Source: Escherichia coli (lineage in GTDB: Bacteria; Pseudomonadota; Gammaproteobacteria; Enterobacterales; Enterobacteriaceae). Taken from it: a stretch of DNA of 64,000 nt. Each line of letters starts with the position of its first letter. The stretch's first letter is position 1. Below, one piece after another: positions 22,095 through 33,354 of the stretch. The stretch lies in assembly GCF_003334335.1 (NCBI RefSeq), contig NZ_QOWQ01000017.1. One strand, given 5' to 3'. The notes beneath the pieces are model-generated. The model was not told where the DNA came from. It saw only the letters and a list, made by a program, of their open reading frames with translations, and searched no databases. Both the position numbers and the translations under genes were made by a program.

Positions 22095-23759
22095 TTACTC
22101 GCCTACTTTCGCCCAGGTATCACGCAGCCCAACGGTGCGGTTAAATACCGGTTTTTCCGCCGTAGAATGGCGGCTATCGAGGCAGAAGTAACCTTCACGC
22201 TCAAACTGGAATGCTTTACCCGCAACCGCATCTTTCAGCGACGGTTCAGCAAAGCCCTGTTTGATCACCAGCGATTCCGGGTTAATCACCGACAGGAAAT
22301 CATCCGCAGCACCTGGGTTAGGCACGCTGAACAGACGGTCATACAAACGGATTTCAACCGGCAGCGCATGTGCCGCGCTCACCCAGTGAATAACACCTTT
22401 GACTTTACGACCATCTGCCGGATCTTTGCTTAAGGTATCGGCGTCATAAGTACAGAAGATGGTGGTGATATTACCTTCGGCATCTTTCTCGACGCGTTCT
22501 GCCTTAATCACATAAGCATTACGCAGACGCACTTCTTTACCCAGCACCAGACGTTTGTACTGCTTGTTAGCTTCTTCGCGGAAATCGGCGCGATCAATCC
22601 AAATCTCACCGCTAAACGGCACCTGACGGCTGCCCATTTCCGGTTTGTTCGGATGGTTCGGCATGGTAACCATTTCGCCTTCGCCCTGATAGTTTTCGAT
22701 AACCAGTTTCACCGGATCGATAACCGCCATTGCGCGCGGCGCATTTTCGTTGAGATCTTCACGGATGCAGGATTCCAGCGACGCCATCTCAATGGTGTTG
22801 TCCTGCTTGGTCACGCCGATGCGTTTGCAGAACTCACGAATAGAAGCCGCAGTGTAACCACGACGACGCAGACCGGAAATGGTCGGCATACGCGGGTCAT
22901 CCCAGCCTTCAACGTGCTTGTCGGTCACCAGCAGGTTCAACTTACGCTTGGACATCACGGTGTATTCCAGATTCAGGCGCGAGAACTCATACTGGCGCGG
23001 GTGAACAGGAATCGTGATGTTGTCCAGTACCCAGTCGTACAGACGACGGTTGTCCTGGAACTCAAGCGTACACAGAGAGTGCGTAATACCTTCCAGGGCA
23101 TCGCTGATGCAGTGGGTGAAGTCGTACATCGGGTAGATGCACCACTTGTTGCCAGTCTGGTGGTGTTCAGCAAATTTAATACGGTACAGCACCGGATCGC
23201 GCATCACGATAAACGGTGAAGCCATGTCGATTTTCGCACGCAGGCAGGCTTTACCTTCTTCAAAACCACCGGCACGCATTTTTTCGAACAGCGCCAGGTT
23301 CTCTTCAACGCTGCGGTCGCGGTACGGGCTGTTTTTACCCGGTTGCGTCAGGGTGCCGCGGTATTCGCGGATCTGTTCCGGCGTCAGTTCATCAACGTAC
23401 GCCAGGCCTTTATTGATCAGTTCGATCGCATAGGCGTGGAGCTGATCAAAATAATCGGAGGAGTAACGGACGTTACCAGACCAGTGAAAACCTAACCACT
23501 CTACGTCGTTTTTGATCGACTCAACATACTCGATATCTTCTTTTACCGGGTTAGTGTCGTCGAAACGCAGGTTGCACTGGCCTTTATAGTCCTGGGCGAT
23601 CCCGAAGTTCAGGCAGATAGATTTCGCATGGCCAATATGCAGATAGCCATTCGGCTCCGGCGGGAAACGGGTGTGTACTGTGGTGTGCTTACCACTGGCC
23701 AGATCTTCATCGATGATCTGACGGATAAAGTTAGTCGGGCGGGCTTCTGCCTCACTCAT
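22095..23759 (-). CDS. glnS: Glutaminyl-tRNA synthetase
   Basis: 554 aa [20 protein letters not shown]... with HIGH and VMSKR motifs. Confidence 0.97.
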
Positions 23760-30330: not shown

Positions 30331-30428
30331 CCTGATGCGCTACGCTTATCAGGCCTACGCAGCTCCTGCAATATATTGAATTTTCATGCTTTTGTAGGCC
30401 GGATAAGGCGTTCACGCCGCATCCGGCA
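30331..30428. repeat. REP/BIME element
   Basis: gcctgatgcgctacgcttatcaggcctac ... gtaggccggataaggcgttcacgccgcatccggca. Confidence 0.75.
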
Positions 30429-32649: not shown

Positions 32650-32678
32650 TTGACGCTGCAAGGCTCTATACGCATAAT
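32650..32678 (+). promoter_or_regulatory. Sigma70-type promoter for the tRNA operon
   Basis: TTGACG, 17-bp spacer, CATAAT, then a GC-rich discriminator gcgcccc; about 40 bp upstream of the first tRNA. Confidence 0.55.
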
Positions 32679-32718
32679 GCGCCCCGCAACGCCGATAAGG
32701 TATCGCGAAAAAAAAGAT

Positions 32719-32795
32719 GGCTACGTAGCTCAGTTGGTTAGAGCACATCACTCATAATGATGGGGTCACAGGTTCGAATCCCGTCGTAGCCACCA
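32719..32795 (+). tRNA. metT: tRNA-Met (elongator, CAU)
   Basis: 77-nt ggctacgtagctcagttggttagagcacatcactcataatgatggggtcacaggttcgaatcccgtcgtagccacca with encoded CCA. Confidence 0.95.
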
Positions 32796-32804
32796 TCTTT
32801 TTTT

Positions 32805-32889
32805 GCGGGAGTGGCGAAATTGGTAGACGCACCAGATTTAGGTTCTGGCGCCGCAAGGTGTGCGAGTTCAAGTCTCGCCTCCCGCACCA
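32805..32889 (+). tRNA. leuW: tRNA-Leu (UAG)
   Basis: 85-nt class II tRNA gcgggagtggcgaaattggtagacg...cgcctcccgcacca; anticodon loop tttaggt. Confidence 0.95.
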
Positions 32890-32912
32890 TTCACCAGAAA
32901 GCGTTGTACGGA

Positions 32913-32987
32913 TGGGGTATCGCCAAGCGGTAAGGCACCGGTTTTTGATACCGGCATTCCCTGGTTCGAATCCAGGTACCCCAGCCA
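32913..32987 (+). tRNA. glnU: tRNA-Gln (UUG)
   Basis: 75-nt tggggtatcgccaagcggtaagg...; anticodon loop ttttgat. Confidence 0.93.
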
Positions 32988-33002
32988 TCGAAGAAACAAT
33001 CT

Positions 33003-33079
33003 GGCTACGTAGCTCAGTTGGTTAGAGCACATCACTCATAATGATGGGGTCACAGGTTCGAATCCCGTCGTAGCCACCA
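33003..33079 (+). tRNA. metU: tRNA-Met (elongator, CAU), second copy
   Basis: Identical 77-nt sequence to the first Met tRNA. Confidence 0.95.
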
Positions 33080-33126
33080 AATTCTGAATGTGTCGAATAT
33101 GTTCGGCAAATTCAAAACCAATTTGT

Positions 33127-33201
33127 TGGGGTATCGCCAAGCGGTAAGGCACCGGATTCTGATTCCGGCATTCCGAGGTTCGAATCCTCGTACCCCAGCC
33201 A
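33127..33201 (+). tRNA. glnV: tRNA-Gln (CUG)
   Basis: 75-nt Gln tRNA; anticodon loop ttctgat. Confidence 0.93.
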
Positions 33202-33204
33202 CAT

Positions 33205-33238
33205 TAAAAAAGCTCGCTTCGGCGAGCTTTTTGCTTTT
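33205..33238 (+). terminator. Intrinsic terminator ending the tRNA operon
   Basis: aaaaaagctcgc-ttcg-gcgagcttttt. Confidence 0.7.
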
Positions 33239-33249
33239 CTGCGTTCATT

Positions 33250-33340
33250 CAATGTCGAATGCGATGTTGACACGTCTTATCCTTCAATGTCGGATGCGAC
33301 GCTGCCGCGTCTTATCCGACCTACGGTTGGCACGCATCCG
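33250..33340. repeat. Degenerate REP-like elements
   Basis: gtcggatgcgacgctgccgcgtcttatccgacctac and an upstream partial copy. Confidence 0.5.
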
Positions 33341-33354
33341 GCAATGTTGTAAGG

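Follow-up and report, generated by a model that had tools for sequence, protein, structure and literature searches.

Tandem tRNA-Gln gene copies missing from the metT operon of an Escherichia coli genome were probably lost during assembly

The metT operon of Escherichia coli K-12 comprises seven tRNA genes with tandem glnU-glnW and glnV-glnX pairs. This arrangement is absent from the DNA described here, which has only five genes. The locus therefore raises the question of whether two tRNA-Gln genes have disappeared from a bacterial chromosome or only from its assembled sequence. The DNA is a 64-kb stretch (hereafter the window) that is 100% identical to NZ_CP041110.1, the chromosome of E. coli ECCTRSRTH03 (ST34). 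An earlier note, made from the sequence alone, had described the five genes, contrasted them with a seven-gene operon in K-12, and attributed the difference to recombinational collapse between near-identical tandem genes.

Within the window, ARAGORN reports five tRNA genes, all on the plus strand, and each is also matched by the Rfam tRNA model (RF00005), which confirms the five-gene array at the coordinates reported in the earlier note. The first gene, metT, encodes an elongator tRNA-Met(CAU) (32719-32795; anticodon CAT) and is followed by leuW for tRNA-Leu(UAG) (32805-32889; TAG), both of which are annotated as well by PGAP on the identical record. A single tRNA-Gln(UUG) gene (32913-32987; TTG) stands in place of the glnU and glnW genes of K-12 and the 34-nt spacer between them. 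The elongator tRNA-Met(CAU) gene metU (33003-33079) has the same sequence as metT, and the array ends with a single tRNA-Gln(CUG) gene (33127-33201; CTG) at the position of glnV, a 37-nt spacer, and glnX in K-12. The order Met, Leu(UAG), Gln(UUG), Met, Gln(CUG) is that of the metT operon, and the annotations of both CP041110.1 and K-12 place the array between asnB and ubiF, reading away from asnB. PGAP lists the same five tRNAs between these two genes in CP041110.1.

The signals for expression of this operon are all present and intact, as the earlier note had proposed, and they are identical to those of K-12. A consensus scan identifies a promoter-like site on the plus strand (32650-32678) composed of TTGACG, a 17-nt spacer, and CATAAT, which matches the −35 and −10 consensus at 10 of 12 positions, and pairwise alignment reveals the same promoter sequence in K-12. 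Directly 3ˊ of the −10 element is the GC-rich discriminator GCGCCCCGC (32679-32687, plus strand), a feature typical of stringently controlled stable-RNA promoters. Downstream of the last Gln gene, a terminator scan detects a Rho-independent terminator (33207-33240, plus strand) of the form AAAAAGCTCGC-TTCG-GCGAGCTTTTT, with 11 base pairs in its hairpin (33207-33232) followed by a T-rich tail. The region between this terminator and the 3ˊ end of ubiF (33241-33345) carries palindromic units that are probably REP-like by comparison with the REP consensus. A similar REP terminates the Logan contig L030 at its far end, which implies that such elements fragment k=31 assemblies.

Two other features of the surrounding region were recorded. 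On the minus strand of the nagD-asnB intergenic region, positions 30351-30393 match the Rfam family for the ES036 (CssrF) sRNA with 41.1 bits, compared to a gathering score of 37.6. The gene glnS for glutamine-tRNA ligase is also on the minus strand, at about 22095-23759 (5110-6774 of L036), approximately 9 kb upstream of the operon. The gene for this enzyme and all genes for its tRNA-Gln substrates are thereby linked within approximately 11 kb.

The locus is the ordinary, essential metT tRNA operon of E. coli, with one sigma-70 promoter and one polycistronic transcript. This transcription unit holds all elongator tRNA-Met, tRNA-Leu(UAG), and tRNA-Gln genes of the species (PMC11480407). In K-12, the terminator is removed from the transcript mainly by RNase E before RNase P can process it efficiently, and RNase P cleavages then separate the individual tRNAs (PMC2241853). 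Because each Gln gene is duplicated, a suppressor allele such as supE44 (= glnX44) can exist in a cell that keeps a wild-type gene (PMC4444293). Nothing suggests that the operon in the window works other than as usual, save for gene dosage if the five-gene state is real.

Pairwise alignment reveals that the window sequence equals that of K-12 minus a segment of 109 bp, minus a segment of 112 bp, and plus one SNP. The SNP is a G at position 33092 (plus strand) where K-12 has an A, is located in the spacer between metU and the Gln(CUG) gene, and is the sole substitution across the operon. The 109-bp segment consists of one Gln(UUG) gene plus its 34-nt spacer, which reads TCTTCTTCGAGTAAGCGGTTCACCGCCCGGTTAT between glnU and glnW, and the 112-bp segment consists of one Gln(CUG) gene plus its 37-nt spacer, which reads ATTTATTCAAGACGCTTACCTTGTAAGTGCACCCAGT between glnV and glnX. 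In each Gln pair of K-12, 77 nt are repeated perfectly, at a period of 109 bp (glnU/W) or 112 bp (glnV/X), and the exact repeat shared by metT and metU is 78 nt. The statement of the earlier note that K-12 has seven genes with two copies for each Gln isoacceptor, compared to one each in the window, is accordingly right. The alignment also establishes that both losses are exact repeat units whose ends fall inside the 77-nt perfect repeats, at 32913-32989 for Gln(UUG) and 33125-33201 for Gln(CUG), both on the plus strand. Because the repeats are perfect over 77 nt, the junctions can be placed no more finely than within the remaining gene. In all other respects the operon resembles that of K-12: it has the same neighbours, asnB and ubiF, the same succession of tRNA species, and a promoter, leader, spacers, and terminator that are identical except for the one SNP. 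It has one copy of each Gln gene rather than two, however, and is 221 bp shorter.

To place this variant in a wider context, 5,426 complete E. coli genomes were searched. To count contracted states, E-value cut-offs were set so strictly that a match had to be contiguous and full-length to pass, and spacers were counted with short queries holding the spacer only. Counting by query coverage was abandoned: it returned 5,414 genomes at a coverage of at least 80%, and another count of 43 was likewise inflated, the search having joined overlapping pieces. Of the spacers within the tandem Gln pairs, that of glnU-glnW was found in 5,338 genomes and that of glnV-glnX in 5,268 (approximately 97-98% each). 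A single Gln(UUG) gene, recognized as a contiguous leuW-Gln(UUG)-metU match, occurs in 71 genomes, and a single Gln(CUG) gene, which is the commonest contracted state, occurs in 138. Both pairs are collapsed in 20 genomes compared to about two expected from the single frequencies (an excess of approximately 10-fold), and three Swiss sample series (GF, AVS, and STK) account for 13 of these 20, across very different backgrounds.

The closest relatives of the window are equally informative. Among 60 listed genomes with approximately 100.0% identity to window positions 21000-45000, CP041110.1 is the only one that is colinear with the window in one piece. The other 59 are at least 221 bp longer and match in at least three pieces. 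For 57 of them the span is exactly 24,222 bp, which corresponds to 24,001 + 109 + 112, and the remaining two are longer with an extra insertion. One of the 59, CFS3292, is annotated with seven tRNAs, and the five-gene variant was not seen in any of these 59 listed near-identical genomes over 24 kb. The same flanking haplotype thus has seven genes elsewhere, which answers the concern raised in the earlier note that the lineage might normally carry five. More broadly, the idea that five genes are normal for this lineage or for many E. coli, with seven being a peculiarity of K-12, has virtually no chance of being correct: no support for it was found, and it is refuted both by the spacer counts and by the seven genes found with the nearest listed flanks. 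Seven genes are the E. coli norm, and the five-gene form is rare.

The rare form does not mark one clone, since 4 to approximately 340 SNPs over 13 kb separate the window from the flanking sequences of five-gene genomes, and a single-clone origin of all such genomes is thereby ruled out. The Gln arrays also vary in the other direction, with up to three glnU-glnW and up to four glnV-glnX spacer copies in some genomes. In other genomes, some contracted states probably reflect real natural variation. For example, a single Gln(CUG) gene is present in two independent O127:H6/E2348/69 records, and this state looks lineage-coherent in an ETEC series, O111:H8, and O127:H6.

Other arrangements of the operon were encountered in the same searches. 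The opposite variant is found in TUM2805 (7279-8329 of L005), where 11 tRNA genes are arranged as Met, three successive 284-bp units of Leu-Gln(UUG)-Met, and Gln(CUG). The same three-place variant type occurs in GF130, GF8, GF161, GF153, GF54, and STK78-E, mostly from the same sequencing series as the collapses. This 11-gene form is either an amplification via the 78-nt metT/metU repeat or a mis-unrolled loop in an assembly graph. In WB61 (NZ_CP020025.1), the glnV-glnX spacer is matched by its 3ˊ part only, under the label 'tRNA-Gln | tRNA-Leu', a sequence pattern indicating that this genome may carry a different rearrangement of the operon.

Short tandem arrays in the CP041110.1 assembly are not confined to the Gln genes. 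CP041110.1 was produced by Unicycler 0.4.7 as a hybrid assembly of Illumina reads and approximately 20x Nanopore R9.4 data, with iterative Pilon polishing (PMC10464208). Seven of the nine tandem tRNA arrays examined in this chromosome are short (glnUW, glnVX, glyVXY, leuQPV, alaWX, metZWV, and argQZYV). Compared to K-12, there are two rather than three copies in glyVXY (13974-14160 of L018) and in leuQPV (12650-12851 of L019), and one rather than two in alaWX (1029-1104 of L024). The fMet array metZWV has one copy (20006-20082 of L027), compared to three in K-12, and argQZYV has three (8526-9248 of L026), compared to four. The valUXY-lysV array, with periods of 120 and 122 bp and exact repeats of 76 and 84 nt, is intact in both CP041110.1 and K-12, as is the lysT operon with its seven genes. 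All told, CP041110.1 falls short of K-12 by roughly nine tRNA genes. In both of the intact arrays, PGAP annotates an 'RtT sRNA (processed from tyrT transcript)' directly 3ˊ of the last Lys tRNA (21855-21980 of L015 and 23376-23501 of L023), which implies that RtT-like repeats exist outside tyrT.

Each of these contracted states is uncommon by itself. Among the 5,426 genomes, the short form is present in 81 for the gly array, 13 for leu, 109 for metZWV, and 130 for alaWX. Together with the two Gln arrays, the six measured states each occur in 0.24-2.5% of genomes, and their joint probability would be approximately 6e-12 if they were independent. They also recur in the same assemblies even though the loci are unlinked and hundreds of kb apart. 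At least 12 assemblies are common to the lists for single Gln(UUG) and two-copy gly, compared to approximately 1.1 expected, and at least 12 are common to the lists for single Gln(UUG) and single metZWV, compared to approximately 1.4 expected; these overlaps are lower bounds from comparing 60 entries of each list. The recurrent assemblies cluster in the sequencing series GF, AVS, STK, and TUM across very different phylogenetic backgrounds. Contracted arrays are also present in re-assembled reference or laboratory strains, among them derivatives of K-12 used in the laboratory (MG1655p, J53, and OV2), Origami2-DE3, an EDL933 record, and the old Xuzhou21 assembly. A cause that acts by assembly or project irrespective of phylogeny is technical rather than biological.

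The lengths of the exact repeats do not predict which arrays are affected. No single k-mer threshold divides the collapsed arrays from the intact ones, since the Gln repeats are 77 nt and those of the intact Val/Lys arrays reach 84-88 nt, and a de Bruijn k-mer threshold consequently fails as an explanation for the choice of arrays. The collapsed set is better described by a short period (139 bp or less), with valUXY (120 and 122 bp) as the exception.

Short-read contigs from the lineage provide a more direct view of one of these arrays. The tRNA-Ala genes adjoin a rare PdeA allele that is found in only six contigs in the whole collection searched. Two of the six derive from short reads, namely Logan contig SRR5943182_175 (k=31) and one contig of the draft assembly GCA_023108395.1, and both of these alaWX-adjacent contigs match CP041110.1 at 100% identity over 5.4 kb. 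Based on the rarity of the allele and the dating of the accessions, SRR5943182 appears to be the sequencing run of ECCTRSRTH03 itself. In K-12, alaW is followed by AATTT and then a T leading into a 39-nt spacer, whereas alaX is followed by AATTT and then a C leading toward pdeA. The Logan contig starts exactly with the last shared 30-mer, GGTTCGATCCCGCTTAGCTCCACCAAATTT, which is the k−1 overlap expected at a branch, and the contig of GCA_023108395.1 starts exactly 77 nt before the point where the alaW and alaX contexts diverge, which corresponds to a k=77 vertex. Because both contigs break where these contexts diverge, the short reads of the lineage contain two continuations after tRNA-Ala(GGC). 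The reads therefore include a tandem alaW-alaX pair, in contrast to the one gene in CP041110.1.

Around the metT operon, every protein allele encoded within 16 kb is common, and the look-up of contigs by protein therefore speaks for alaWX and not for the Gln pairs. REP elements beside the terminator would also break k=31 contigs.

The local sequence at the Gln genes cannot separate a deletion from an assembly collapse, because both would give a clean loss of one unit, and the alternatives must be weighed on the wider evidence. Real deletions in the chromosome could have arisen by RecA-dependent unequal crossing-over, or by RecA-independent slippage or sister-strand misalignment between the 77-nt repeats. 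Deletion between repeats depends on the proximity of the copies, and a short period favours slippage in vivo; the affected arrays are all of short period, as this dependence predicts. Each missing segment is one repeat period ending inside perfect homology, the Gln arrays both contract and expand across genomes, and single-copy states are found both on many unrelated backgrounds and in the assemblies of independent projects. The operon would also be expected to stay functional, as judged from its sequence, with at least one copy of every tRNA species. Known in vivo deletions and amplifications of tandem repeats share the exact unit loss within perfect homology and the variation of copy number in both directions. 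Classical cases at the tandem tyrT-tyrV genes and the duplicate tRNA-Gln2 genes are reportedly those of Russell et al. (1970) and Inokuchi et al. (1979; cited in PMC4444293). If deletion did occur, the gene dosage of both tRNA-Gln isoacceptors would be halved, because all E. coli Gln tRNA genes are located in this operon. Yet this explanation requires at least eight independent unit losses across seven arrays to be fixed in one isolate, when six of the seven array states have the low frequencies given above and the same flanking haplotype elsewhere has seven genes. Moreover, the recurrence at unlinked loci in particular sequencing series lacks a biological rationale, and alaWX is still tandem in short-read contigs from the lineage. 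The genome-wide pattern and the alaWX reads thus point away from a biological event in ECCTRSRTH03, and we regard real deletion as possible but unlikely. With regard to the recombinational collapse proposed in the earlier note, the exact loss of repeat units in perfect repeats stands, but an in vivo cause is disfavoured by the five further short arrays, the recurrence at unlinked loci, and the tandem alaWX in lineage contigs.

Two related possibilities deserve mention. The chance is small, somewhat below that of deletion at the Gln genes, that the isolate truly has a streamlined tRNA set with single Gln genes and contracted gly, leu, ala, fMet, and arg arrays. If so, natural E. coli can fix a genome-wide cut in tandem tRNA dosage, for instance where selection for fast growth is relaxed or where a defect raises tandem-repeat deletion. 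Considerably less probable is a mixed case in which most short arrays are artefacts and, by coincidence, true polymorphism underlies the contraction of one or both Gln pairs. Single Gln(CUG) is the most frequent of the contracted states, and its apparent lineage coherence in some groups suggests that real variants of this kind exist. However, there is nothing specific for ECCTRSRTH03, the genomes of the same haplotype have seven genes, and the excess of double collapses (20 compared to approximately 2) fits a common technical cause.

We conclude that the Gln copies are probably missing because short tandem repeats collapsed in silico when CP041110.1 was assembled. In such a process, the 77-nt perfect repeats with periods of 109 and 112 bp would have been merged while the genome was built, in the setting of a short-read-first hybrid assembly (Unicycler 0.4.7) with iterative Pilon polishing. 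We infer that the loss of one copy from each Gln pair had the same cause as the shortening of the other arrays. The software step that dropped the units might have been graph simplification, bridging, or Pilon, and in the real chromosome of ECCTRSRTH03 all seven canonical genes are most likely present.

Published cases of sequence loss during assembly involve the same assembler family and, as appears to be the case for the alaWX array, sequence that is present in reads but missing from the finished assembly; they also share with the present observations many repeat loci per assembly and clustering by sequencing project (PMC10868617). The published cases differ in that they concern large inter-plasmid repeats and whole contigs, whereas those in CP041110.1 are chromosomal tandem tRNA repeats of 109-139 bp. 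Studies of tRNA copy-number evolution in Pseudomonas fluorescens SBW25 and comparative work in E. coli resemble this locus in describing repeat-mediated changes in tRNA gene dosage (PMC7661048; PMC10954465). However, those studies report experimentally verified duplications of tens to hundreds of kb under selection, whereas the contraction in the window is small and probably not real.

As biology, the finding is ordinary: the locus is a known operon, and even a real deletion would belong to a familiar class of events, the loss of tandem tRNA copies. Its consequences concern the genome records from which tRNA gene sets are read. Among 'complete' RefSeq E. coli genomes, each contracted array appears in approximately 0.2-2.5%, with clustering by project, and at least one contracted array (alaWX) is contradicted by short-read contigs. 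Contracted tandem tRNA arrays are therefore likely to be a systematic issue of annotation and assembly quality. Checking the canonical tandem tRNA arrays provides a simple flag for affected assemblies. The studies at risk include those that score 'gene loss' from hybrid assemblies and those that depend on tRNA copy number in E. coli, such as tAI-type indices, the prediction of growth rate, and the evolution of tRNA gene sets.
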